From Persephonella sp. (GTDB taxonomy: Bacteria; Aquificota; Aquificia; Aquificales; Hydrogenothermaceae): a stretch of DNA of 64,000 nucleotides. The stretch covers positions 166 through 64,165 of the forward strand of contig JALVKE010000198.1 in the NCBI GenBank assembly GCA_027028005.1. The letters are read 5' to 3'. Positions within the stretch are counted from its first letter, which is position 1. Each line of letters starts with the position of its first letter. Below are positions 6,380 to 61,401 of the stretch, in pieces. The notes under the pieces are model-generated. The model was not told where the DNA came from, ran no database searches, and worked only from the letters and a program-made list of their open reading frames with translations. A program made the translations under genes and the position numbers.

Positions 6380-8815
6380 ATGGATTTTATAAAAATATCC
6401 AATCATGCAAAACTGATTTATAAAGACAGGCAGATAGACTCAAAAGAGATACAGGAAAATATTGATTTTTTTTCAAGATTTATAAAAGGAAACTCTAAAG
6501 TCTGTATTTTTTCAAAAAACAGACCTGAATGGATTTATACTTTTTTTGCTACATGGAAAAAAGGTGGAATAAATATTCCTATTGATTTTATGTCCTCTGT
6601 AGATGAGGTTAGCTATATACTGAATGATTCAAGACCTGATTTTATCTTTACATCAGAAGAAAATCTTAAAACAGTTGAAAAAGCTATAGAAAGCCTCAGT
6701 TACAAGCCAAAGATATTAATTTTTGAACATATGAAAGATGGGGAGTTTGAGGAGAAAAAAGTTGATAAAAACGTTGATGATACAGCTGTTATTCTTTACA
6801 CATCTGGAACAACAGGAAAACCAAAAGGGGTTATGCTTTCATATGAAAACCTTCTATCAAACATAGAGGGGTTAGATGACAGAAAAATAGCAACTTCTGA
6901 TGATTCAACTATAGCAATACTTCCTTTCCACCACTCTTACCCTCTTATGGTGAGTATGCTTTATCCCCTCCATATTGGAGCAAAGATAGTTTTTATAGAA
7001 ACTCTATCAGCATCTGAGATACTAAATGTGATGAAAAAGGAAAAAATATCTGTTCTAATTGGTGTTCCAAGACTTTATGAGCTTTTCCATAGAAAGATAT
7101 TTGAAAAGATAAATCAAAATCTAATTGCAAAAGGTCTGTTTAAGATTGTTAAGAAAATTAATAATCAGAATCTTAGCAAAAGGATATTTGAAAGAGTGCA
7201 TAATGAGTTTGGAGGAAATATAAAGTTCTTTGTTAGTGGTGGAGCAAAACTTGATATAGATATTGCAAAGGACTTATGGGCTTTAGGTTTTAAGATAATA
7301 GAGGGATATGGATTAACAGAAACATCACCAATTGTTTCCTTTAATCCAAAAGAAAAAATAAAGCTTGGTTCTGTTGGAACACCTATTAAAGATGTAGAAG
7401 TAAAGATTGAAGATAGTGAAATCCTTGTAAAAGGTAAAAACGTTTTTAAGGGATATTTAAATAATCCTGAAAAAACAAAAGAGTCTTTTAAGAATGGATG
7501 GTTTTTAACAGGGGATTTAGGTTATATAGATGAAGAGGGTTATCTTTATATAACAGGTAGAAAAAAAGAGATAATAGTCCTTCCAAATGGAAAAAATATA
7601 AACCCTGAAGAGATTGAAAACAAAATAAAGAAAATTTCAGATATTGTAAAAGAAGTAGCAGTTTTACAAAAAGATAACCACCTTTTTCTAATAGTTTATC
7701 CTGATTTTGAGAAGATAAAAGAAAAAGGAGTAGTTAATATAGAAGAAACAGTAAAATGGAAAGTAATAGACAAGTACAATTTAACTGTTCCTCCCTATGA
7801 AAGAATTCATGGCTTTAAGATAGTAAAAAGAGAACTTCCAAAAACGAGACTTGGAAAGATAAAAAGGTTTATGCTTGATGAGTTTTTAAAAGAAGAAGAA
7901 AAAGAAAAATCTGTAAAAGAACCAGAGTTTATAGAATATAGAATAATAAAAGATTATCTTGAAAAAGTTGTAAAAAGAAAGGTATATCCTGATAACCATA
8001 TTGAGATAGATTTAGGACTTGATTCTTTAGAGAAGATAGAGTTTTTAACATTCTTAGAAAATAGTTTTGGTATTGATATCTCAGAAAAAGAACTTGCTAG
8101 GTATCCAACTGTTGTTGAGATAGCTAAATATGTAAAAGAGAAGAAAAGAAAGCTTGAAGTTGAGGAGGTAAACTGGAAAAAAGTTTTAGAGAAGGAGATA
8201 AAGGTTGATATATTTGAAAGTGGGATTCCTCTAATACTTCTAAAGTATCTTTTAAAGCCTGTTTTCAAGGTTTATTTTAGATTGGACGTAAAAGGGACTG
8301 AAAATATAAAGGAGAAGAACGCTATCTTTATATCAAACCATCAGAGTTATTTAGATGGTTTTCTAATAATTTCAACGCTTCCAAATGATGTTCTGAAAGA
8401 TATATACTTTTTAGCAGAAGAGACCTACTTTAACGATAGATTTAAGAAACTCATTGGAAAAATCTTCCATGTGATTCCTGTAAATATCAATAAAAATCTT
8501 AAGGAAACTCTTCAAAAAACAGCTTATATTTTAAAAAATAGAAAAAGTGTGTTGATATTTCCAGAAGGAGCAAGAACAAGAGATGGAAATCTCCTTGAGT
8601 TCAAAAAAGCATTTGCCATCTTAAGCAAAGAGCTTAACAAACCTGTTCAACCTATAGTCATAAAAGGTGCTTTTGATGCTTTTCCTATAGGTTCAAAATT
8701 TCCAAAACCTAAAAAAATAACTATTGAATATCTAAAACCTATCTATCCAGATAGTAAAGATATAGATGAGATAGTAAACATTTCAAGAGAAATGATAGAG
8801 AAGAAACTTTTATAG
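6380..8815 (+). CDS. three-domain fusion: acyl-AMP ligase (acyl-CoA/acyl-ACP synthetase) - carrier protein (PP-binding) - PlsC-type lysophospholipid acyltransferase (Aas-like)
   Basis: AMP-binding motifs YTSGTTGKPKGV, GYGLTE, TGDLG and PKTRLGKIKR. Carrier motif DLGLDSLEKIEF (Ser549 codon at 8024-8026). Acyltransferase HX4D motif NHQSYLD (8336-8356) and FPEGARTRDG. Confidence 0.85.
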   Translation: MDFIKISNHAKLIYKDRQIDSKEIQENIDFFSRFIKGNSKVCIFSKNRPEWIYTFFATWKKGGINIPIDFMSSVDEVSYILNDSRPDFIFTSEENLKTVEKAIESLSYKPKILIFEHMKDGEFEEKKVDKNVDDTAVILYTSGTTGKPKGVMLSYENLLSNIEGLDDRKIATSDDSTIAILPFHHSYPLMVSMLYPLHIGAKIVFIETLSASEILNVMKKEKISVLIGVPRLYELFHRKIFEKINQNLIAKGLFKIVKKINNQNLSKRIFERVHNEFGGNIKFFVSGGAKLDIDIAKDLWALGFKIIEGYGLTETSPIVSFNPKEKIKLGSVGTPIKDVEVKIEDSEILVKGKNVFKGYLNNPEKTKESFKNGWFLTGDLGYIDEEGYLYITGRKKEIIVLPNGKNINPEEIENKIKKISDIVKEVAVLQKDNHLFLIVYPDFEKIKEKGVVNIEETVKWKVIDKYNLTVPPYERIHGFKIVKRELPKTRLGKIKRFMLDEFLKEEEKEKSVKEPEFIEYRIIKDYLEKVVKRKVYPDNHIEIDLGLDSLEKIEFLTFLENSFGIDISEKELARYPTVVEIAKYVKEKKRKLEVEEVNWKKVLEKEIKVDIFESGIPLILLKYLLKPVFKVYFRLDVKGTENIKEKNAIFISNHQSYLDGFLIISTLPNDVLKDIYFLAEETYFNDRFKKLIGKIFHVIPVNINKNLKETLQKTAYILKNRKSVLIFPEGARTRDGNLLEFKKAFAILSKELNKPVQPIVIKGAFDAFPIGSKFPKPKKITIEYLKPIYPDSKDIDEIVNISREMIEKKLL

Positions 8816-24587: not shown

Positions 24588-25100
24588 TTATCTTTTGTAT
24601 AATCCCATAAGTTCAGTTGTCCCTACTATATGACCGTTAATAGCTTTTATCACTTCCTGTATTTTTGCCTTAGGAGGTATACCTAATGTATTCTTATCTA
24701 TAGCAAATAACTTAAAAAAGTATCTATGGGGCTTACCAGGAGGTGGACAGGGTCCTCCATATCCTACTCTTCCAAAATCGTTTATTCCTTGTTTTATTCC
24801 ATTTACCTCAGGTTTCTTTGGAAAATTTTCTGCTATGCCTGTAGATGTGGCAGGTATATCGTAAACAATCCAATGTATGAATGTTCCTATTGGCGCATCT
24901 GGATCCTCTACTATGATAACAAAACTTTTTGTTCCTTTTGGGGCATTTTCCCATGTAAGGGGAGGAGAAATATCTTCCCCATCACAAGTATATTTTACAG
25001 GAATAAAATCTCCGTAGTTAAAGGCTGGAGACATTATCTTAAAGTTTTGTGCGAATACTGATGTATAAAAAAGCATGAGGAGAACTAGTATAAGCCTCAT
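24588..25100 (-). CDS. YbhB/YbcL (PEBP) family protein, secreted paralogue
   Basis: Signal peptide MRLILVLLMLFYTSVFA. Motifs DPDAP, HWIVYDIP and GYGGPCPPPGKPHRY. Confidence 0.85.
   Translation of the reverse strand: MRLILVLLMLFYTSVFAQNFKIMSPAFNYGDFIPVKYTCDGEDISPPLTWENAPKGTKSFVIIVEDPDAPIGTFIHWIVYDIPATSTGIAENFPKKPEVNGIKQGINDFGRVGYGGPCPPPGKPHRYFFKLFAIDKNTLGIPPKAKIQEVIKAINGHIVGTTELMGLYKR
24722..24800. repeat. near-identical tract shared by the two PEBP paralogues (copy 1)
   Basis: 79 nt with 3 mismatches against 25231-25309. The core 24733-24788 is a 56-nt exact match. Confidence 0.85.
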
Positions 25101-25558
25101 CTTTGATAAACCCCCATAGTATATCCTTCAGATATAATATGTCCTTCTATAGCTTCTCTAACAACTGAATGATGCTCTCCTGGAGGAAGACCTAATGTTG
25201 GAACATCAAGCGCTAAAACTATAAAGAAATATCTATGAGGTTTACCAGGAGGTGGACAGGGTCCTCCATATCCTACTCTTCCAAAATCGTTTATTCCCTG
25301 TTTTATTCCTTCTATCTCTGGAACTTTAGGAAAGTTTTCCGGTAAACCATTAACTGTTGGTGGAATGTCATAAACTACCCAGTGAGTAAATGTACCCATT
25401 GGCGCATCTGGATCTTCCATTATTAAAGCAAAGCTTTGAGTATTAGGTGGATAGTTTCCCCATACAATTTCAGGAGAAATATCTTCTCCATCACAAGTGT
25501 AAACAACAGGTATTAATGTTCCTTCTTCAAATGCTGGACTTTTTACAATTATACTCAT
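25097..25558 (-). CDS. YbhB/YbcL (PEBP) family protein, cytoplasmic paralogue
   Basis: Same motifs (DPDAP, HWVVYDIP, GYGGPCPPPGKPHRY) but no signal peptide. Its stop overlaps the downstream paralogue's start. Confidence 0.85.
   Translation of the reverse strand: MSIIVKSPAFEEGTLIPVVYTCDGEDISPEIVWGNYPPNTQSFALIMEDPDAPMGTFTHWVVYDIPPTVNGLPENFPKVPEIEGIKQGINDFGRVGYGGPCPPPGKPHRYFFIVLALDVPTLGLPPGEHHSVVREAIEGHIISEGYTMGVYQR
25231..25309. repeat. near-identical tract shared by the two PEBP paralogues (copy 2)
   Basis: Matches 24722-24800. The rest of the two genes is clearly more diverged. Confidence 0.85.
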
Positions 25559-40354: not shown

Positions 40355-41334
40355 TAGCAGTTCTCCTTTAGAATTTTTGCAGCTTCCTTTGCGTGATACG
40401 TTATTATGATGTCTGCGCCAGCCCTTTTTATAGATGTTAATGTTTCCATCATAACCTTCTTTTCGTCAATCCATCCTAATTTTCCAGCTGCCTTTATCAT
40501 AGAGTATTCACCACTCACATTGTAAGCAGCTACAGGAAGATTAAAGTTTTTTCTTATATCACTGATGATATCTAGATACGCCAAAGCAGGTTTTACCATA
40601 ACAATGTCTGCACCTTCTTCTATGTCTAAAGCTACTTCTCTTAAAGCTTCTCTTCTGTTTGCAGGATCCATCTGATACGTTCTCCTGTCTCCAAATGCAG
40701 GAGCTGACTCAGCAGCATCTCTAAAAGGTCCGTAGTAAGCAGATGCGTATTTTGCTGAGTAAGACATAATAGGAATGTTTGAAAAGCCTGCCTCATCTAA
40801 AGCTTCTCTTATTGCTTTTACAACGCCGTCCATCATTCCAGAAGGAGCTACCATATCTGCCCCAGCTTTTGCATGAGATACAACCTGTTTTTTTGTATTT
40901 TCCAAAGTAAGGTCGTTATTCACATCATGTTCATGTAAAACTCCGCAGTGTCCATGCTCAGTGTATTCACAGAAGCATACATCAGTTATAACGTACAACT
41001 GAGGATAATTCTTTTTTATATGTCTTATAGCCTTTTGTATAATCCCCTCTTCACTCCATGTATCACTTCCAACAGCATCTTTATGAGAAGGAATTCCAAA
41101 AAGAAGCACTGCAGGGATTCCAAGCTCTACAACTTCATCAAGTTCCTCATCTATTCTATCTAGTGAATACCTGTGGATTCCAGGCATTGAAGGAATTTCT
41201 ATCTTTATATTTTCCCCATCTTCTATAAATAGAGGATATATAAAATCGTCTACAGACAGATTGGTCTCCCTCACAAGTCTTCTTATATTTTCGTTTCTTC
41301 TCAATCTCCTTGGTCTGTGGATAGGAAAAGCCAT
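40354..41334 (-). CDS. hemB: porphobilinogen synthase
   Basis: HRPRRLR N-terminus, Zn-site [14 protein letters not shown], and Schiff-base lysines (VMVKPAL; [10 protein letters not shown]). Confidence 0.95.
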
Positions 41335-41483: not shown

Positions 41484-41512
41484 TTGACAAGCTTAATAGT
41501 AACTATTATCAT
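41484..41512 (+). promoter_or_regulatory. candidate sigma-70 promoter of the periplasmic redox cluster
   Basis: TTGACA (41484-41489), a 17-nt spacer, then TATCAT (41507-41512). The first gene's ATG is at 41554 with a GGAGG RBS. Confidence 0.45.
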
Positions 41513-41534
41513 TATCTTAACAGTAATCATTACT
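41499..41534. promoter_or_regulatory. Fur/PerR-family operator candidates
   Basis: ATTATCATTATC (41505-41516) is the reverse complement of GATAATGATAAT, the first 12 nt of the classical Fur box, and overlaps the -10. A perfect 6-1-6 palindrome AGTAAT-C-ATTACT lies at 41522-41534 (TAATnATTA core). Confidence 0.4.
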
Positions 41535-41553
41535 AATACTATGGAGGTTTATT

Positions 41554-42321
41554 ATGATTGTTAAAACTATCTTTACCACGGTATTTTTACTTACAGTTTT
41601 TATTTCTGCATTAGCTAATGAGGAGATAAAAGTAGGAAATCACTATTTAGTAGCCTATGTAAAGTATTTTGCTATGGCTAATGAGAAAAATTACCACAAC
41701 TCTTCTGGTACCGGGATTATTGAGGGATACGTAATATTCAATGGGAAAAAGATTCCAAAAAATAGAAGAAAGCTGATAACAAAGGACAGGAAGGTATGTG
41801 GGAAAGGTTTCAAAATTGATAGAGTCTACATAATTGGTAAAAATAAAGGTGTTAAAAACGCCGTTGTCTATATTTCAGATCTAAAAGTAAAAAAACCGGA
41901 AGAAAGATTGTTAATTCAGAAAAAGTGTGAATTCCATCCTAGAGTACTTTCTATGTCAGCTGGTTCTGTACTTGTAATAAGAAATGATGATCCAATCAAA
42001 CATGAGGCTACAGGAGTACAGAACTTTGAAACAATTTTCAAGGTTCCTCAACCTAAAAAAGGGATGGTGGATAAAGTTAGATTAAACAATCCAGGCATTG
42101 TAAAAATCACCTGTAGTATTCATGGATGGATGATAGCATGGGCTGTTATTCCTCCAAATCCATTTCACGCTGTAACAGATGAAGAAGGAAAATTCGTTAT
42201 AAAAGATGTTCCTGCAGGAGAATACACTTTAAAACTTTGGCATGAAGGATTTGGGGAAAAAGAAATAAAAGTTAACGTTCAAGAAGGGAAAACTACACAC
42301 GTTACATTCAAGGTTCAATAG
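41554..42321 (+). CDS. secreted cupredoxin-like protein with C-terminal carboxypeptidase-regulatory-like (Ig-type) domain
   Basis: Signal peptide MIVKTIFTTVFLLTVFISALA. Candidate type-1 Cu ligand pattern (H..KHEATG ... CSIHGWM = C-x2-H-x2-M). C-terminal TDEEGKFVIKDVPAGEYTLKLWHEG. Confidence 0.6.
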   Translation: MIVKTIFTTVFLLTVFISALANEEIKVGNHYLVAYVKYFAMANEKNYHNSSGTGIIEGYVIFNGKKIPKNRRKLITKDRKVCGKGFKIDRVYIIGKNKGVKNAVVYISDLKVKKPEERLLIQKKCEFHPRVLSMSAGSVLVIRNDDPIKHEATGVQNFETIFKVPQPKKGMVDKVRLNNPGIVKITCSIHGWMIAWAVIPPNPFHAVTDEEGKFVIKDVPAGEYTLKLWHEGFGEKEIKVNVQEGKTTHVTFKVQ

Positions 42322-42345
42322 AACATCTATTTAGGAGGTATAAAA

Positions 42346-43443
42346 ATGAAAGGGAAAATGTTCACTTTTGCAATTAGTCTAGGGCTTATAGTAGGGGTTT
42401 CATTTGCCAATGGAGATATGAGGCTTAAATCTCTTCCAGATAAACCTCCTGAGCCAGAGGATAACCTAACAACACCTGAAAAAGTTGAGCTTGGAAAGTT
42501 CCTTTACTTTGATCCCAGGTTATCAGGAGATGGAAGTACATCCTGTGCAACATGTCATGACCCTTCAGAAGCTTGGGGTAAAAATCAGGTAATGTCTCCA
42601 GCGTATCCTGGAAATGCACATTTTAGACATTCACCTACTATCTTAAACTCGGCATATAACTCTTTAATGTTTTGGGATGGTAGAGCAAAAACTCTGGAAG
42701 AGCAGGCAAAGAAACCTATTATCACACCTTTTGAGATGAACCTTCATTATGATCTTATGATTGAAAGACTAAGAGCTATATCCAAGTACAGAAGTATGTT
42801 TAAAAAAGCATTTCCCAATGATAAAGAACCTGTAACACTGGAGAACACTGTAAAAGCTATTGCTGCATTTGAAAGAACTATAGTCTGTAATGATACTCCA
42901 TTAGACAGATATCTTAGAGGAGATAGCAATGCCCTGAGCAAAAAGCAAAAGTTAGGTTTAAAGTTATTCCTAGGTAAGGCAGGTTGTATCCAGTGTCATA
43001 ACGGTGAAAACCTAACTGATAATAAATTTCATGTTACAGGCGTTCCCAAAAGTAAGGCAGAAGATAACGTCCTAACAAAGATAACAAGAAATTTTGCTAT
43101 AAGACAGTTTGGGTTTGATAATCCATATCAGTTTGATAGAGATTTAGGCAGATTTTTTATAACAAAAGATCCAGAGGACAAAGGAGCATTTAAAACTCCT
43201 ACTCTAAGAAATGTAGCACTTACCCCACCTTACATGCATAATGGAGCCTTTAAAACACTAAAAGAGGTAGTTGAATTTTACAATAAAGGCGGAGGAGATG
43301 CTCAAAATAAAGATTCCCGTCTAAAACCTTTAAATCTTTCAGAAGAAGAAAAATCAGCATTAATAGCATTTTTAAAAGCATTAACATGCGAAAACATACC
43401 ACAAATAGAAGAACCTGAGTTACCAGATTTTGATCAAAAATAA
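42346..43443 (+). CDS. di-haem cytochrome c peroxidase (CcpA/MauG family)
   Basis: Signal peptide. Haem motifs CATCHD and CIQCHNG. PTLRNVALTPPYMHNGAF signature. Confidence 0.9.
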   Translation: MKGKMFTFAISLGLIVGVSFANGDMRLKSLPDKPPEPEDNLTTPEKVELGKFLYFDPRLSGDGSTSCATCHDPSEAWGKNQVMSPAYPGNAHFRHSPTILNSAYNSLMFWDGRAKTLEEQAKKPIITPFEMNLHYDLMIERLRAISKYRSMFKKAFPNDKEPVTLENTVKAIAAFERTIVCNDTPLDRYLRGDSNALSKKQKLGLKLFLGKAGCIQCHNGENLTDNKFHVTGVPKSKAEDNVLTKITRNFAIRQFGFDNPYQFDRDLGRFFITKDPEDKGAFKTPTLRNVALTPPYMHNGAFKTLKEVVEFYNKGGGDAQNKDSRLKPLNLSEEEKSALIAFLKALTCENIPQIEEPELPDFDQK

Positions 43444-43459
43444 AAAGGAGGTTATAAAA

Positions 43460-44479
43460 ATGAAGATTTCAAGAAGAAATCTCATTAAACTATCTGCAAC
43501 AGCTGGTTTAACAGCTTTTACAGCAACTTCAATATCTCCACTTCTGGGAGTTATAAATGTAGCACAGGCTAATCCTTTGAAGAAGACAAAGATTGTTCCT
43601 TTTAATTTTGCAGTAATTGGAGATGCTCATCTGTACGAAATACCAAACCACAGATTTGATAAAACCCTTGAAAAAGCTGTGAACCAGGTCCTGAACATGA
43701 AACCAAAACCTGATTTTGTAGTGTTTTTAGGAGATCTTGCGAACTTTGGTAAGAAAGAAGAGCTTTTAAAAGGAAAAAGAATTTTAGATAAACTGAGAAA
43801 AGCAAAAATTCCTTACAGGATAATTCCTGGAGAACATGATTGGTACTTTGATTTAGGAAAATTCTGGAAAGAGCTTTTTGGCTCGCCTTATTGGAGCTTT
43901 AACTATAAAGGAGTTCACTTTATAGGGATGAACTCTATAATCGTTAAAGATTTCTGGACAACAAGAGATATGACTCCATGGGAAAGAATGCTTGCTATAG
44001 CTGAACTTGAATGTGATATATGTGGATTATGGGGAGTTGGAGAAAAACAACTTCAATGGTTAAAAGAAGATGTAAAAAATCTTCCTCCTGATACTCCTAT
44101 AGTTATTTTTACACACTCACCATTGTGGAACTATTATCCCCGTTGGAATTTCCAGACTAAAGATGCAGATGCAATAAGGGATATTCTCTCAAAATTTGAA
44201 AAAGTTATAGCTATACATGGACATGTACATCAAGTTGTTTATAACAGAACAGGAAATATGGTTCATATTGGAAACCTTGCAACATCCTGGCCTTGGCCTT
44301 ATCCACCTGTTAAACTGCCATACCCAAAAATAATTATGAACAGGGTAGATCCTGGAGATATGTACGATGGAGTAGGATTTTCCACAACATACATAGATGA
44401 TACATTCTTAGGGAATATGAAATATGTAGAGTGGGCAGATCTAATACCAAAAGACTTTAAAAACAGTATTCCATTATAA
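43460..44479 (+). CDS. Tat-exported metallophosphoesterase (calcineurin-like)
   Basis: Twin-arginine signal MKISRRNLIKLSATAGLTAF...AQA. Motifs IGDAH, GDLANFG, PGEHD and HGHVH. AAGGAGG RBS before ATG 43460, although the ORF opens at 43430. Confidence 0.8.
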   Translation: MKISRRNLIKLSATAGLTAFTATSISPLLGVINVAQANPLKKTKIVPFNFAVIGDAHLYEIPNHRFDKTLEKAVNQVLNMKPKPDFVVFLGDLANFGKKEELLKGKRILDKLRKAKIPYRIIPGEHDWYFDLGKFWKELFGSPYWSFNYKGVHFIGMNSIIVKDFWTTRDMTPWERMLAIAELECDICGLWGVGEKQLQWLKEDVKNLPPDTPIVIFTHSPLWNYYPRWNFQTKDADAIRDILSKFEKVIAIHGHVHQVVYNRTGNMVHIGNLATSWPWPYPPVKLPYPKIIMNRVDPGDMYDGVGFSTTYIDDTFLGNMKYVEWADLIPKDFKNSIPL

Positions 44480-44494
44480 AAGGAGGTGTAAGCT

Positions 44495-44949
44495 ATGAGA
44501 ATAAAAAATACATTCCTTACAGGAATATTACTTGCAGGTGTTCTTATAAGTGAATCAAATGGTAAACCTCCATTTGAGAAAGAAGAATTAAAACTTATGA
44601 AAGAAGAATTAATTAATCTTGTAAAAAAGGGGATGAGCTTTGGCACAGTCCAAAACTTGGGACAAATGGTCTAACCTGTGCCAACTGCCATCCAGATGCA
44701 GCCTACTCAAACCCAAATACATTTCCTAAATATCAGTCTAACATAGGTAAAGTAGCTACATTAAGAGAAATGATAAACTGGTGTATTCAAATTCCTTTAG
44801 AAGGAAAATCCTTACCAGAAGACAGTGAAGAAATGAAAGCTTTAGAAACATACTCCATATATATGTATAGAGGATTTAAACTAAAACCAGGAGATAATGA
44901 GAAAGCCTATCCTTCTATAAAAGTTGAATCAGGTCCAGGATATCCTTAG
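44495..44949 (+). pseudogene. small periplasmic cytochrome c. The frame switches by -1 at A-AAA-AAG (44623-44629), either as a frameshift mutation or error, or as programmed -1 frameshifting.
   Basis: AGGAGG RBS (44481-44486). The zero frame encodes a signal peptide plus 59 aa to TAA at 44672-44674. The -1 frame continues as GDELWHSPKLGTNGLTCANCHPD... to TAG at 44947-44949. The joined product would be 151 aa. Confidence 0.7.
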
Positions 44950-44956
44950 ATTGAAT

Positions 44957-44978
44957 GAGAGACCCTAAAGGGTCTCTC
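44957..44978 (+). terminator. stem-loop after the cytochrome c gene (no clear U-tract)
   Basis: GAGAGACCC-TAAA-GGGTCTCTC, a 9-bp perfect stem starting 8 nt after the stop codon. Confidence 0.4.
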
Positions 44979-45336
44979 ACAAAAACAATTTTTAAAATCT
45001 AAAAACAATCTTTAAAAAGTACATATTGTTCTCTTTAATATAAAAAATATTTCTGAACGTATTCCCGGACTGTTCTTTTGAAAAAAATACTATCAACTGT
45101 GTCCTTTAAGATACCTGCTAAATACTTAAATCTTATTTATCCGTTTTAAAACTGGTTTTTAATTTTTTCAAAGAATTTTTGCTGTAAATCTAATAATTTC
45201 ATTATGTACTGATGAAACAGCTTTATGTTTGAAATACTATACCACTGTTATCTTGGTAGTTTATCAAATAATCTTGTATTTCTTGTAAAATAATGAATTA
45301 AAGAGAATTTTATTGTTTGTATTAAGGAGGAAAACA

Positions 45337-51253: not shown

Positions 51254-51309
51254 TTATATAAAATCAAAATTTGAAATTTAAACTTAAACACTCAAAGGGG
51301 GTAAAAACC

Positions 51310-53262
51310 ATGAGAAAATTAGCAAGATCGGCGCTACTTGGTGCTATGGCAACAGGTATCATAGCAGGAGTTGCAAAAGCACACACGTCACATGCTGAAT
51401 TTTATTTTGAGTTTTCAGGAACACACTCAACCAACGATATGATCACTGTTCCTTGTGAAGCTTCTGATTATCTTGCAAAACAAAGTGTTGAGTACAATTT
51501 AGATCCTAACAAGCCTTCTCCTATGGGAAATAACACAGGAGTTTTCATTAAGTACAAACCTGCTAACCAGTTAAACAATGCTGACAACATTGTTTTTACT
51601 CTGAAAAATGCAGTTTTTGGAAATAGTCTAAAAAAATGTTGGCTAGTTTTCTACGAACATAATGGAATTGATACAACTGGTAATGGTGTAGGTGATACTA
51701 GCTTTGATGTAAACAGAGATGGTGATGCGTATGATATGATTGTTGTTGCTGAAACAAGAAATACTGTGCAGCTAAAAAAATCTATTGAACTTAACGTTGG
51801 AGATGCAGGTAGAGGTATTCCTGCTAATGCTATTTATTACCTATGGTGTAACGAAGCAGGTGAACCTAGTTTAATTGATGCAGATGGAACAGCAGGGTCT
51901 CCTCAAATACCTAGTAATTATTCAAGATATGCACCTGTAATAAATATCACATCAGATTTATACGATTCAGATACTACAGATACGTGCAAATTATCTGATC
52001 CAGGAGATAAAGTATGTATTTCAGCAACTGGATATACATGTTGTCCTCCAGGAAGTGGTGAATTAGATGGTTATAAAACTATTAAGGATTACTGTATTAT
52101 AGATACTGCATGTCAGTTCATATTAGGTATGAAAGCTAGCTTATCTATTATAGATATGTATCCACAACTTAATACTGCTACTTGTGAAAATAGTAAATCA
52201 GGTTTAATTAAATGTTACGATAAAAATTATGAACCTGGTACTGCTTTTGTACCTGTAGGTGACGATAACGATATTTTAAGAACAAATCATTGTACAGATC
52301 GTTATGCTGCAGATGGAACTATCTCTATACTTAATGATCCAAGAAATCTTGTAGATGATGATATTGTTCTTGGAGTTAATAAATGGAGAGGTACATTCTC
52401 AGTATCAATAAGTGATGTAGACAATAACTATGCTTGTGATAATAGAAATGGAAGAGGCTTTAGAAAAGGTCCTTATGAAGCTTTAGATTTCCCTAATAGA
52501 ATGTTTATTGATAACAATGGTAATCCAACATCTCCAGCAGCAGCTCATATTCCTTTAAATCCAGGAAGAGCTTGTAGTGCTGAGAATATAAATGTAGTAA
52601 ATGGAGATCCAAATACTGGTACAACTAATACTATTAAAATTAGAAGAGATAGTGTATGGACTGACGATGTATACATGGGTGTAAACAAGAAAAGACTCTG
52701 GTGGGTAAGATGGGGTCTTGAAGAAGAATTAAAGATTTACTCTCCAGACAATGATACTTTTACTGTAAGCCTTAATGAAGAAGAAGCTGCTAAGTGTGAT
52801 ACAAGAAAATGCTGTTATGATGCAGACGGAACAGCTTACTTCAAGAAATGGGAACCAAATGGAGATGAAGCATATATTCCTTACATGATAGATGATAGCC
52901 AGTTTTACATCGTTATATCAAACAACTCTTGCTGGGATGCTGAAATCTACGCTAGAGTTTGGGATTCTGCAGGTAGAGTTGTTGATAATGTATACCTTGG
53001 AAAAATTGGCAAAAACTCAGTTAGATTTATAACAGGTGCTTCTATAGCATTTGAAGCTAGAAAAGAACATCCACAAATCCTTAGAAACATAATACCTCTT
53101 TACTCAGTAATGTTAACAATAGGTGCACCTAAGAGAGATGTAGAAATAGCTGCTTACGATAACAGAAATGGAAAATCTAAGATGGTACCTGTTTATGATA
53201 ATGGAGCTCACCACTGGAGCTATAGAAACGTTCCATTTAACCAAGATATATTTGAAAAATAA
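51310..53262 (+). CDS. secreted cysteine-rich protein of unknown function (envelope/surface protein candidate)
   Basis: AAGGGGG RBS before ATG 51310. Signal peptide MRKLARSALLGAMATGIIAGVAKA|H. 18 Cys by my count, N/D/G/T-rich, and a composition unlike its neighbours. Strong terminator downstream. Confidence 0.7.
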   Translation: MRKLARSALLGAMATGIIAGVAKAHTSHAEFYFEFSGTHSTNDMITVPCEASDYLAKQSVEYNLDPNKPSPMGNNTGVFIKYKPANQLNNADNIVFTLKNAVFGNSLKKCWLVFYEHNGIDTTGNGVGDTSFDVNRDGDAYDMIVVAETRNTVQLKKSIELNVGDAGRGIPANAIYYLWCNEAGEPSLIDADGTAGSPQIPSNYSRYAPVINITSDLYDSDTTDTCKLSDPGDKVCISATGYTCCPPGSGELDGYKTIKDYCIIDTACQFILGMKASLSIIDMYPQLNTATCENSKSGLIKCYDKNYEPGTAFVPVGDDNDILRTNHCTDRYAADGTISILNDPRNLVDDDIVLGVNKWRGTFSVSISDVDNNYACDNRNGRGFRKGPYEALDFPNRMFIDNNGNPTSPAAAHIPLNPGRACSAENINVVNGDPNTGTTNTIKIRRDSVWTDDVYMGVNKKRLWWVRWGLEEELKIYSPDNDTFTVSLNEEEAAKCDTRKCCYDADGTAYFKKWEPNGDEAYIPYMIDDSQFYIVISNNSCWDAEIYARVWDSAGRVVDNVYLGKIGKNSVRFITGASIAFEARKEHPQILRNIIPLYSVMLTIGAPKRDVEIAAYDNRNGKSKMVPVYDNGAHHWSYRNVPFNQDIFEK

Positions 53263-59448: not shown

Positions 59449-61401
59449 TTATTTATTTAAAAGCTCCAATGCTTCTAGTATTTCTAGACCTGACTCGTGG
59501 ATAGACGTTCTGCCTATAAATCCAGCAAGTCTGGCAACAGCTAATTCTTTTTCAAAGGTTTCTTTGTCTAAACCTGATATTCTAAGAGCTTCTTCCCAGT
59601 TTTTAGGAAGAATTCTAACCCTCTTCTCCTTAACATATAGATTTCCTACCTGCTTGATAGCCTGTAGTATTCTAACAATAAGTGGATTTATTGGATCAGC
59701 TATGCCTTCAGGAACTCCAGACAATGCTTTTTTGATAAGTTTACCTGGCTCCGTTAATCTAAGACCATTGTTAGGAAGAACATCAAGTATGTATCTAGCT
59801 TCAAGTTTATTTACTGCATACTGAACTTCCTCTTTAAGGGTTTCATCAAACTCCTTAAATAACTCTTCTAAAAACATTCCATATTCAGGGATTTTATGTA
59901 GAACCATTAATTCAAATCTTGTAAGGTGAGGAATCCTTTTAATAGCATAAGCTAATCTTTCGTATAACTCTCCAGACTTTGTAGGGTATCCTCCACCTAC
60001 TAGACCTTCCTTTACCCCTTCTTCATACCAGTTATAATTTGGCGCACCAAACTCTGTTTTTGTTATTGTTACAGCTTTAACGCCTGTTGCTGTAATCTCT
60101 CTTACACCTCTTTCTTTTATATCTTTTAGTACCTCGACTCCATGAGGAGTAAACTTGTATATAAGCTTACCTTTCTTCTCATCAACTTCAGAAACTATAA
60201 GGTTAAAAGACTCTAGAGAGTATAAAGATTCCATTACAGTATCAAATAATTTTTCATACCATTCATTCCCTTTTTCCCAGAAATGTTTGAATAGATCTTC
60301 AACAGTAAATAATTCAGCCCATTTTTTCTTTAGCTCTTCTTTCTTCTGATATCCCATAGCTTGATTTAGCATTCTACCGTAAAACTCTTTAAGATGTTTA
60401 TACTCTTTTAAAGGCTTTTCAAGTAAGTAGTGAACAATTTCTTCTGCTGTTGCAAGAATTTCAGGATTTTCTTTATGTTTTTCCCAAACTTTTTCTAGAC
60501 CTATAAGAATTTCTTCATCTAATGTTTCAAGGTTAAACGTTTTTACAGGTCTGTACTCTCTTTCATTCCATAGTCTATAAACTTCAAGTAGATGTTCTCC
60601 TGCAGGTAATAAATTTCCTTCAGCATCTATAAAAGCAAGTTCCTGTAATACTTCAAGTTCTTGAGTTGTAAGAGCTTCTATTCCACTGTCTAATACTTTT
60701 AAGAGAGCATACATATAATCCTCATTTATTATTGTTCCTAGAGATGGTGCCATTGTTTGAATAGTTTTTTGAACGGCTTGACCAAGACCTGATAATGTAT
60801 ATACATCAGAGTTAGGAACAGAAAAAGATATTAATCTCATCGATTCCATAATTTCAAGATTTCTACCGTGAACAGGTAATGTACTTGTTTCTGCTGGTCC
60901 TGGAGGAATAGACGCTATATATCTTCCTAATTCTCTAGATATTTCTAATCTAGGTTTTGCTTTCTGATAGATATCATAAATAGCCTTTGCATACTCATTT
61001 ATCTCTTTAAACCATCCTTTTTTTTCTTCATGTCTTTCTTCTGCTAACCCTCTTTCAGCTAAAGGTTTAAATGTTAATTCTCCTGTAAGATTCCCACTTC
61101 TTATCGCAGCATCAATCATAGCAATCACTTCTGATCCAATCCATCTAAATCTCTCATCCCATTCTGATGGATGTTTTAAAAGACCTTTTTGTATCATCTC
61201 TTCCATAAGATAAACAAGATTTCTACCCCAGTATGTAAGCACATACTCTATTGGGCTACTTCCCTGTTCAAGAAGATTTTGAAGTTCCAGTTCTAAATAT
61301 GGATCCTCCTCAGCTTTTATGGTTATTTGACAGGCTGAACCTTTTTCTTCTTGAGATTTAGCGTTTAAAAGTGCCAGTGCATGTTCCTTTTTTATAAGCA
61401 T
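59449..61401 (-). CDS. large cytoplasmic protein apparently built from repeated winged-helix-like units; function unknown
   Basis: 650-aa ORF with an AAGGAGGG RBS. It has recurrent helix-turn-helix plus wing signatures ending in x-(L/F)T-x-x-G-x-x-(L/V) (YTLSGLGQAV, LLPAGEHLLEV, FTPHGVEVLK, PTKSGELYERL, RLTEPGKLIKK, IHESGLEILEAL). Confidence 0.6.
   Translation of the reverse strand: MLIKKEHALALLNAKSQEEKGSACQITIKAEEDPYLELELQNLLEQGSSPIEYVLTYWGRNLVYLMEEMIQKGLLKHPSEWDERFRWIGSEVIAMIDAAIRSGNLTGELTFKPLAERGLAEERHEEKKGWFKEINEYAKAIYDIYQKAKPRLEISRELGRYIASIPPGPAETSTLPVHGRNLEIMESMRLISFSVPNSDVYTLSGLGQAVQKTIQTMAPSLGTIINEDYMYALLKVLDSGIEALTTQELEVLQELAFIDAEGNLLPAGEHLLEVYRLWNEREYRPVKTFNLETLDEEILIGLEKVWEKHKENPEILATAEEIVHYLLEKPLKEYKHLKEFYGRMLNQAMGYQKKEELKKKWAELFTVEDLFKHFWEKGNEWYEKLFDTVMESLYSLESFNLIVSEVDEKKGKLIYKFTPHGVEVLKDIKERGVREITATGVKAVTITKTEFGAPNYNWYEEGVKEGLVGGGYPTKSGELYERLAYAIKRIPHLTRFELMVLHKIPEYGMFLEELFKEFDETLKEEVQYAVNKLEARYILDVLPNNGLRLTEPGKLIKKALSGVPEGIADPINPLIVRILQAIKQVGNLYVKEKRVRILPKNWEEALRISGLDKETFEKELAVARLAGFIGRTSIHESGLEILEALELLNK

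Follow-up and report, generated by a model that had tools for sequence, protein, structure and literature searches.

What are four adjacent genes for exported redox proteins and a hydrolase doing together in Persephonella sp., and do they work as a unit? The genes lie in a stretch of 64,000 nucleotides from this member of the Hydrogenothermaceae (assembly GCA_027028005.1, contig JALVKE010000198.1, positions 166 to 64,165), which was analyzed at its full length and is called the window here. They are named g1 to g4 in the order of reading (Table 1) and encode a cupredoxin-like protein, a di-haem protein, a metallophosphoesterase, and a small cytochrome c. A first-pass annotation, made from the sequence alone, had seen in them an undescribed periplasmic module rather than a plain ccp (cytochrome c peroxidase) locus and had offered three functions: a peroxide-detoxifying electron chain, a MauG-like maturation system, or a system for sulfur compounds. 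Its structural observations stand: the coordinates give four co-directional genes with spacers of 24, 16, and 15 nt, Sec-like hydrophobic N-termini are present on g1, g2, and g4 and the twin-arginine motif SRRNLIK on g3, and the motifs quoted for g1, g2, and g3 are all found at the residues given. Judged by sequence conservation, the four-gene cluster is one conserved periplasmic operon, and the view that it is no plain ccp locus is borne out by what appears to be a conserved, uncharacterized module. We give a probability of roughly 45% to the reading that it is a periplasmic sulfur-compound module in which the cupredoxin and the di-haem protein serve as redox partners.

Relatives of g1 were sought in one genome per species with a 15-sequence alignment as query, giving 30 loci, and a metagenome scan gave more than 567 loci, of which 80 were kept. 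The order g1-g2-g3-g4, on one strand, recurs in every fetched Aquificota locus that reaches the next gene (19 loci in all, 14 of them complete, from Hydrogenothermaceae and Aquificaceae), as well as in one Leptospiraceae metagenome-assembled genome (MAG) and, as an intact set, in the cultured Hydrogenivirga caldilitoris. Identity to the nearest species (locus L002) is 91% for g2, 91% for g3, 84% for g4, and 77% for g1. Of the loci, which come from many phyla, 79 extend 900 nt or more past g3, and in every one of them the next gene, on the same strand, is a g4 homologue. Chance juxtaposition is excluded by the recurrence of the order in Aquificota and of g3-g4 in 79/79 loci. The earlier proposal of a four-gene module thus holds for the conserved order, but the unit of conservation is g3-g4, to which g1 and g2 are lineage-specific additions.

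What accompanies the pair was counted in the 50 loci with both flanks. An Lcl_C-domain protein (PF07603/DUF1566) is the only accessory in 22 of them, a g2-like gene alone in 13, g1 together with g2 in 13, g1 alone in 1, and g2 together with Lcl_C in 1. This near-exclusive distribution suggests that g1/g2 and Lcl_C are alternative accessories of g3-g4. The Lcl_C protein is secreted, about 180 aa long, and has conserved Cys residues; it stands after g3-g4 in most proteobacterial loci (L032-L087, e.g. L032 9557-10054), and a PDB sequence search with it gave no match. A convergent gene for a TauE/SafE-family anion permease lies directly downstream of the cluster in Aquificaceae (L115 9433-10341, which is H. 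caldilitoris; L010; L019). Text searches of the literature for a metallophosphoesterase with TsdA, SoxA, SoxYZ, or a MauG-like protein plus cupredoxin, and for DUF1566 with SoxY, returned nothing relevant. Each of the proteins falls in a known superfamily; what appears to be uncharacterized is the g3 family, the g4 family, the obligate pairing of the two, and the Aquificota operon of four genes.

The sole Pfam domain of g3 is PF00149 (63 bits), and a twin-arginine translocation (Tat) signal was detected at SRRNLIK (TIGR01409, 18.1 bits against a cut-off of 16.7). The five metallophosphoesterase motifs (D-x-H/G-D/G-N-H-[DE]/H/G-H-x-H) are all present and invariant; GDAH (54-57), GDLANFG (91-97), GEHD (124-127), and HGHVH (253-257) are joined by THSP, and the di-metal ligand set is full (Asp55/His57, Asp92, His126, His219, His255/His257). 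Motif III deviates invariantly, with Glu125 in GEHD for the usual Asn. Both the ligands and GEHD are invariant in 18 sequences from Aquificota and Gammaproteobacteria at 53-84% identity, and the family has many further invariant Trp, Pro, and Arg residues (e.g. in TSWPWPYPPV and YYPRWNFQT). A protein search gave 420 homologues, the members from Gammaproteobacteria MAGs being 53-60% identical, and a representative library gave 53 matches at E<1e-30. Residues 185-188 (44012-44023) read CDIC, a CxxC kept in Aquificota and many Gammaproteobacteria that may form a lineage-specific disulfide; its replacement by SPIA in other members implies that it is not essential to the family.

An AlphaFold2 (AF2) model of g3 (predicted local distance difference test score, pLDDT, of 73) was compared by Foldseek with known structures, and the matches were led by Rv0805 (E 1e-12, target-normalised TM-score [TMt] 0.82) and included GpdQ and purple acid phosphatases, the first 5'-nucleotidase appearing at rank 38. 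Similarity to characterized phosphoesterases is marginal in sequence (PDB E about 1e-3), and the protein falls below the curated cut-offs for CpdA (NF008359, 31 bits against 225) and SpdA (32 against 400), while automatic annotation labels the family CpdA/Icc. SoxB consists of an N-terminal metallophosphoesterase domain followed by a 5_nucleotid_C domain, in about 560 aa. The likeness to SoxB that had been drawn earlier is right in that g3 is a predicted Tat-exported di-metal enzyme, but its family and fold are not SoxB-like, and a SoxB orthologue was rejected on the length of 339 aa without a 5_nucleotid_C domain and on the fold neighbors.

The second member of the pair, g4, has a broken reading frame in this genome (see below) and was analyzed as the repaired protein. 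It matches PF21342 (SoxA/TsdA cytochrome c) with 45 bits against a cut-off of 27 and aligns to the haem-1 domain of Rhodovulum SoxA (E 4e-9). The CANCH haem motif, in the -1 frame, is followed by a Cys 31 residues past the haem His, as had been noted, and this Cys, in MINWC, falls on Cys114 of SoxA (MINAC) and on the ligand Cys of TsdA (RIGDC). The earlier speculation that it is a distal ligand of the SoxA/TsdA type is thereby strengthened. Gly46, His50, CxxCH-Pro, Met93, Trp96, Cys97, and Tyr120 are each at least 95% conserved in 59 sequences, with the Cys invariant, and His66 and Cys97 are the probable ligands of the one haem, the arrangement of SoxA/TsdA. A homologue search returned 346 proteins, and the 120 listed are 113-171 aa long and carry PF21342 only. 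Like them g4 is a single domain; it reaches 42 versus 110 for the SoxA equivalog TIGR04484, and no SoxX-like gene is adjacent to it. Proteins of this family are labeled 'thiosulfate dehydrogenase' by Joint Genome Institute (JGI) pipelines. Thiosulfate is bound in TsdA by Arg109, Arg119, and Ser127, and the SoxA family acts through a Cys S-thiosulfonate intermediate (PMC4423706). The absence of the Arg/Arg/Ser triad led us to reject g4 as a catalytic TsdA/SoxA domain.

Variants of g4 were seen elsewhere. In a high-GC group with g2-g3-g4 (L088-L113, e.g. L108 8106-8867), which is the group with g2 as its only accessory, the g4 homologue is about 250 aa long and has an extra N-terminal region with conserved-looking Cys, Met, and His residues; a separate gene between g3 and g4 was considered for this group and rejected, the segment being a roughly 100-aa N-terminal extension of the g4 homologue. 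One metagenome open reading frame (ORF), P0272, has a g3-like C-terminal half in frame with a g4-like CAQCH domain and degenerates at its end; it may be a g3-g4 fusion, as a single low-quality candidate.

The di-haem protein g2 matches PF03150 (CCP_MauG) with 191 bits and has the haem motifs CATCH (67-71) and CIQCH (214-218), PYMHNG (295-300), an inter-haem Trp in FWDGR (109-113), and a distal LEEQAKKPxxxPFEM segment. Its best whole-length PDB match is Geobacter CcpA (237 bits), followed by MacA, and the column of CcpA Met297 is occupied by Tyr312 (EFYNKG), at the position of the MauG axial ligand Tyr294. For the C-terminal segment the best alignments are those to MbnH (6e1c, 51 bits) and MauG (45 bits), with EFYNKG set against LFYNKY of MauG (residues 262-297) and DIYSEGG of MbnH. 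A Tyr stands at this ligand position in 34/34 g2-like genes of the fetched loci. The scores stay below the family cut-offs for both MauG (TIGR03791, 269 against 444) and MbnH (TIGR04039, 256 against 363), and no mau or mbn gene for a protein substrate (methylamine dehydrogenase [MADH] beta subunit, MbnP) was recognized among the locus genes examined. Since g2 has Tyr at the Tyr294 position and fails both equivalog cut-offs, we assign it to an undescribed subfamily of MauG-class di-haem proteins with predicted His/Tyr ligation. Of the earlier label, MauG/CcpA di-haem peroxidase, the MauG part holds at the second haem, but the peroxidase Met is absent, and its invariant replacement rules out a plain ccp peroxidase.

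The remaining gene, g1, encodes a secreted protein with a signal peptide, a low-confidence linker (residues 18-49), and a C-terminal CarboxypepD_reg domain (200-254), its only Pfam match. It contains KHEA (149-152) and CSIHGWM (187-193), which supply the candidate copper ligands His150, Cys187, His190, and Met193; the C-x2-H-x2-M loop has the spacing of amicyanin. His150, His190, and Met193 are invariant in 28 homologues and Cys187 is kept in at least 90% of them, and all four are each at least 95% conserved in 22 locus-derived sequences. A conserved pair, Cys82 and Cys125, may form a disulfide. In the AF2 model (pLDDT 86.5) the central domain has a Greek-key cupredoxin fold, its top Foldseek matches being cupredoxins (5fc9 at E 3e-6, pseudoazurin, amicyanin, plastocyanin; E 3e-6 to 1e-4, TMt 0.5-0.7). 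In line with the cupredoxin-like label of the first-pass annotation, g1 is by modeled fold and ligand set a type-1 cupredoxin, with copper binding predicted; the Pfam match and the sequence, and not the model, suggest that this domain is inserted in a beta-sandwich resembling CarboxypepD_reg. Planctomycetota have g1-like cupredoxin/CarboxypepD_reg genes followed by two tandem MauG-like genes (L022, L028) or else two or three g1-like paralogues side by side (L023-L025, L029, L030), in both cases without g3-g4. The former imply that the g1-g2 pairing is also an independent module.

The case for sulfur compounds comes from the neighbors of g3-g4 in other phyla, which were examined by clustering the flanking ORFs and running Pfam on cluster representatives (clusters c3, c21, c22, and c24 were discarded as antisense shadow ORFs of g3, HiPIP, LysR, and Lcl_C/SoxY, respectively). 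A SoxY or SoxZ gene was found no farther than 5 kb from g3-g4 in 18/99 loci, a high-potential iron-sulfur protein (HiPIP) is found near the pair in 11, FccB (flavocytochrome c sulfide dehydrogenase) in 8, and a divergent LysR gene in 19. The typical operon is tight and reads LysR / g3-g4-LclC-SoxY-SoxZ-HiPIP, with FccAB upstream. The SoxY proteins of these loci end in the carrier motif GGCGG, and several of the SoxYZ-linked operons stand alone, flanked by unrelated housekeeping genes. Elsewhere the operon is directly next to a gene for a molybdoenzyme like SoxC (L075) or for a 5'-nucleotidase-family protein like SoxB (L048). Of the three functions offered at first, it is the sulfur-compound option to which these SoxYZ, HiPIP, FccAB, SoxC-like, and SoxB-like neighbors lend independent support.

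If so, the functional core would be g3 as the di-metal hydrolase and g4 as the Cys-ligated haem protein, and their substrate would be an anionic sulfur species or a protein-bound adduct such as SoxY-S-(S)-SO3-. The Cys-haem of g4 could carry out a two-electron, thiol-linked oxidation step, and g3 could hydrolytically release the terminal oxyanion, a reaction like that of SoxB but by an enzyme from another branch of the fold. The two steps would parallel those of SoxA and SoxB. Electrons would leave through a small carrier: in Proteobacteria the HiPIP, encoded in the same operon as SoxYZ and the Lcl_C-domain protein, and in Aquificota the g1 cupredoxin, where g1 and g2, with its peroxide-activating pocket apparently intact, would take the place of the HiPIP. 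HiPIP is the acceptor of Allochromatium TsdA. The Aquificota chain would then run from the substrate to the g4 haem, the g1 copper, g2, and finally H2O2 or another oxidant, with g2 either handing electrons to peroxide or supplying a strong oxidant. The full form of this proposal, in which g3-g4 is an unrecognized, widespread two-protein 'mini-Sox' acting on SoxYZ or on a free sulfur oxyanion and is wired in Aquificota through the cupredoxin to a MauG-class protein, coupling it to peroxide reduction or needing a bis-Fe(IV) oxidant, is tentative, and we think it somewhat doubtful.

Several observations weigh against a role in sulfur metabolism. No Sox gene is found beside any Aquificota cluster or among the examined ORFs of the window, and about 80% of the loci have no sulfur gene within their flanks. 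The TsdA residues Arg109, Arg119, and Ser127 align with Asn, Met93, and Pro in g4, whose closest match is the haem-1 domain, a non-catalytic one, of di-haem SoxA, and g3 sits on the cyclic-nucleotide/glycerophosphodiesterase branch and not on that of SoxB and the 5'-nucleotidases. A canonical SoxB-like gene accompanies g3-g4 in one of the SoxYZ-linked loci, which means that g3 is not simply a replacement for SoxB. His/Tyr di-haem proteins are known as protein-modifying oxidases and not as electron sinks, and the regulatory look-alikes in the g1 promoter, described below, suggest metal or peroxide control and not control by sulfur.

A first alternative takes g2 at its family's word. In a maturation of the MauG/MbnH type, g2 would react with H2O2 to form bis-Fe(IV) and oxidatively modify a residue such as Trp in g1 (as with MbnP and MbnH), g3, or g4, the modified protein being the effector. 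The invariant Tyr294 equivalent, a C-terminal half closest to MbnH and MauG, and the retained distal Gln/Pro/Glu segment of g2 all fit this, as do the order of g1 then g2, which matches that of a copper protein and, behind it, a MauG-like enzyme, the free-standing g1-like and MauG-like pairs of Planctomycetota, and the many invariant Trp residues of g3. However, g1 has a complete type-1 copper ligand set and needs no modification, g2 fails the cut-offs of both model enzymes, and no mauA- or MbnP-like gene was recognized in these loci. The genes also recombine freely: 13 loci have g2-g3-g4 but no g1, g1-g3-g4 occurs in the absence of g2, and in 22 loci g3-g4 has neither g1 nor g2 beside it, so that no single pair of substrate and enzyme explains all of the arrangements. 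With g1, g2, and the core pair found in several combinations, among them g1-g2 alone, the pure maturation option of the first-pass annotation fits poorly, and we regard it as unlikely.

A second alternative is suggested by the promoter. A scan found a sigma-70-like promoter ahead of g1, with the -35 element TTGACA (41484-41489), a 17-nt spacer, and the -10 element TATCAT (41507-41512; 11/12 match). Two AT-rich palindromes lie between the -35 element and the ribosome-binding site, AATAGTAACTATT (41497-41509) and AGTAATCATTACT (41522-41534), the second with a GTAATnATTAC core. GTAATNATTAC and GTAATCATTAC each occur once in the window, against 0.05 expected for each. In 8/18 regions, namely the window and 7/17 orthologous loci, the 120 nt ahead of g1 contain the TAATNATTA core, at a density of 3.7 per kb against a background of 0.06 per kb (about 60-fold enrichment), and its carriers include all five Hydrogenothermaceae sequences and the Leptospiraceae locus. 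Such palindromes precede g1 in the window (41497-41534) and in L002-L005, L011, L013, and L021. They resemble the 7-1-7 operators of the Fur family (Fur, PerR, Zur), which comprises metal- and peroxide-responsive repressors, and we infer that a regulator may bind there. The full Fur consensus, that of E. coli, was tried and is not significant in the window. In Proteobacteria, by contrast, g3-g4 has a LysR regulator beside it.

Peroxide defense would account for such a promoter. Under this explanation g2 is a peroxidase with g1 as its electron donor, as pseudoazurin is for Paracoccus cytochrome c peroxidase (CCP), a PerR-like (Fur-family) repressor controls the operon, and g3 and g4 feed electrons or are co-regulated stress proteins. 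The whole-length matches of g2 to bona fide peroxidases, the Fur/PerR/Zur-like TAATnATTA palindromes shared with 7/17 orthologous promoters, and the g1-g2 pairs without g3-g4 speak for it. Against these stand the replacement of the Met of the electron-accepting haem by Tyr in every g2 member, the want of a significant full Fur consensus, and the pattern of conservation, in which g3 and g2 are the most conserved (91%) and g1 lags at 77%. The universal g3-g4 unit would be left unexplained, and we hold peroxide defense to be improbable.

A third alternative starts from g3, which may simply be a periplasmic phosphoesterase acting on phosphodiesters or monoesters in scavenging or nucleotide turnover, with g4 setting or sensing the redox state of the di-metal site, in the manner of reduction-activated purple acid phosphatases. 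It has in its favor the phosphodiesterases and purple acid phosphatases among the fold neighbors, the metal ligands, all of which are kept, and the automatic CpdA/Icc label. It is opposed by the marginal similarity to characterized enzymes given above and by the invariant Glu in place of the metal-2 Asn. The constant pairing with g4 (79/79), the SoxYZ, HiPIP, and FccAB neighbors, and regulators of the LysR and not the Pho type are all unlike phosphate scavenging, and this, too, is an account that we think unlikely.

The state of g4 in this genome raises a separate question. The first-pass annotation had read g4 as one continuous gene and in doing so had silently crossed a frameshift, as a 1-nt deletion splits the ORF. 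Frame 0 runs for 59 codons to a TAA at 44672-44674, and the -1 frame holds CANCH (44677-44691) and the Cys codon of MINWC (44782-44784). The frame is lost at 44621-44629 (GTA AAA AAG); with one codon added on either side, the window reads CTT GTA AAA AAG GGG and close relatives CTT GTT AAA AAA GGG, one T more (e.g. L117, with 94% amino-acid identity, and L002). The missing base is the T of GTT, outside any long homopolymer. The identical broken g4 occurs in three assemblies (that of the window, Logan SRR13622961 [L001], and ENA ERZ23491094 [L114]), and no other gene in the window is visibly broken despite 255 A/T runs of 6-7 nt. A sequencing artefact is therefore unlikely, and on this assembly-level evidence we treat the deletion as real in this population. 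A 12-nt in-frame deletion in the signal-peptide/h-region of the window's g4 (44540-44560) was also seen relative to L117 and L002.

The deletion creates a slippery heptamer, A_AAA_AAG, in phase with frame 0. Either the module is crippled in this genome, or g4 is made only at a low level through -1 slippage on this heptamer. A further step would be to see in the break a programmed -1 ribosomal frameshift or transcriptional slippage that sets the dosage of g4, a reading compatible with each of the functional ones (the likelihoods need not sum to one). The heptamer is of the dnaX type, and a -1 slip on it would restore the ancestral ...LVKKGDELWH... protein exactly. A stable hairpin is predicted downstream (dG -27.8, z -2.56), the shift is reproduced in three assemblies, and g4 is the sole broken gene in a window that is 92% coding. 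However, g4 is a single unshifted ORF in all fetched relatives with a readable g4 region, including the one at 94% identity, and the hairpin owes its stem, as a by-product, to the conserved codons for WHS and TCAN and is not conserved, L004 being without it. No Shine-Dalgarno-like stimulator lies upstream, and the three assemblies may share one sample or population. A recent inactivating deletion is the simplest reading, and we consider a programmed shift quite improbable. The break is nonetheless a caution for annotation and offers a small natural test case for slippage on A_AAA_AAG.

The weakest explanation, that the operon is a Fur-controlled periplasmic ferroxidase-type system for handling iron, comparable with EfeO/EfeB or FtrB and with g3 as an iron-binding di-metal protein, can point to the Fur-like operator look-alikes, to the EfeO cupredoxin domain (7wgu) and FtrB (8vuk) among the Foldseek matches of g1, and to the resemblance of g3 to iron-containing purple acid phosphatases, but it is very improbable given a weak operator assignment, three haems per operon, which are odd for a response to iron starvation, the absence of a permease or transporter conserved with the cluster, and a GDLANFG motif in g3 without the Tyr ligand of the purple acid phosphatases, whose motif is GDxxY.

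The cluster is bordered by hemB on the minus strand, which ends at 41334, and by proS, which starts at 45313. AAGGAGG ribosome-binding sites precede g3 and g4. The end given earlier for the cluster, 44978, is that of a hairpin and not of g4. This hairpin is likely, from its sequence and position, the terminator of the operon; no T-run follows it directly, a simple terminator scan did not call it, and the non-coding gap ahead of proS is 363 nt long.

Table 1. Features of the g1-g4 cluster, in coordinates of the 64,000-nt window
Feature	Coordinates	Strand	Description
Putative promoter and operator	41484-41534	+	Promoter scan and palindromes
g1	41554-42321	+	255 aa
g2	42346-43443	+	365 aa
g3	43460-44479	+	339 aa
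g4	from 44495	+	151 aa once repaired
g4 5' part, frame 0	44495-44674	+	Signal peptide and N-terminal helix, 15 out-of-frame codons, TAA
A_AAA_AAG slippery heptamer	44623-44629	+	In phase with frame 0, created by 1-nt deletion
g4 3' part, -1 frame	44623-44949	+	SoxA/TsdA-fold cytochrome c domain; stop TAG 44947-44949
Candidate terminator hairpin	44957-44978	+	Perfect 9-bp, GC-rich, GAGAGACCC-TAAA-GGGTCTCTC, 8 nt past g4 stop

Elsewhere in the window, tRNA and Rfam RNA scans of the whole 64 kb found none. Further notable genes lie at 59449-61401, 6380-8815, 51271-53262, and 24588-25558. In this order they are a gene for a DUF505 protein of full length (824 bits), one for an Aas-like protein in which AMP-binding, carrier, and acyltransferase domains are fused, one for an Slr4-like S-layer protein, and two tandem ORFs, of which the one scanned (24588-25100) encodes a PEBP-family protein.

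If the sulfur-compound reading is true, g3-g4 would be a new enzyme system for bacterial sulfur oxidation, present at more than 500 metagenomic loci in thermophilic and mesophilic lineages, and the metallophosphoesterase fold would then have been recruited twice, independently, for S-O/S-S chemistry, with SoxB as the first case. It would also give a function to the single-domain His/Cys cytochromes that pipelines now label 'thiosulfate dehydrogenase' or 'cytochrome c' without test. To our knowledge, few physiological roles are known for MauG-class enzymes besides those of MauG and MbnH, and g2 of Aquificota would be a His/Tyr protein of this class with its natural partners (a cupredoxin, a di-metal hydrolase, and a thiolate haem) encoded alongside. 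The intact copy in cultured H. caldilitoris (GCA_003664005.1, L115) makes these proposals directly testable.

Each protein can be set beside systems that are already known. The fold of g3 is that of the class III phosphodiesterases Rv0805 and GpdQ and of purple acid phosphatases (TMt up to 0.82), and none of their di-metal ligands is missing from it, but the protein is only 15-18% identical to them, has Glu in motif III, is exported by Tat, has an obligate cytochrome partner, and is without the purple acid phosphatase Tyr. Di-haem peroxidases with a cupredoxin donor (Paracoccus CCP/pseudoazurin, Geobacter CcpA/MacA) are the best overall matches of g2 and resemble it in the two CxxCH motifs, the peroxide-activating pocket, and the adjacent cupredoxin, whereas the His/Met ligation of their electron-transfer haem is His/Tyr in all g2 members. 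MauG, which acts in tryptophan tryptophylquinone (TTQ) biogenesis, and MbnH, whose partner MbnP is a kynurenine-dependent copper protein, share with g2 the CCP_MauG fold, the inter-haem Trp, the Gln/Pro/Glu segment, and the axial Tyr, and g2 is likewise encoded directly after a periplasmic copper protein. Unlike them, g2 scores below both cut-offs and its N-terminal domain is nearer to true peroxidases, and its neighbor g1 is a canonical type-1 cupredoxin and not MbnP or a quinoprotein precursor.

The pair g3-g4 is best compared with the Sox core (SoxAX, SoxB, SoxYZ), which likewise combines a Cys-ligated haem protein of the SoxA/TsdA fold with a Tat-exported di-metal hydrolase of the metallophosphoesterase fold, and SoxYZ-linked g3-g4 operons typically also carry a small electron carrier. 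The differences are that g4 is one domain of 12-14 kDa without a SoxX partner or the Arg/Arg/Ser triad and that g3 is a 34-kDa protein of the Rv0805/GpdQ type with GEHD and without the 5'-nucleotidase C-terminal domain. In Erythrobacter flavus 21-3, a pathway of TsdA and SoxB that converts thiosulfate to sulfur has been shown genetically (PMC7608252). There, too, a Cys-ligated cytochrome and a metallophosphoesterase-fold hydrolase are encoded in one gene cluster, and they work one after the other on thiosulfate and tetrathionate, no SoxYZ being involved (PMC7608252). The TsdA of that pathway is a di-haem protein of 36 kDa and its SoxB proteins are of the 5'-nucleotidase family, both families being other than those of g3 and g4, for which a joint activity is predicted; by analogy, the pathway may nevertheless be taken as a precedent in function for a cytochrome with a Cys-ligated haem that acts together with a hydrolase of the metallophosphoesterase fold.

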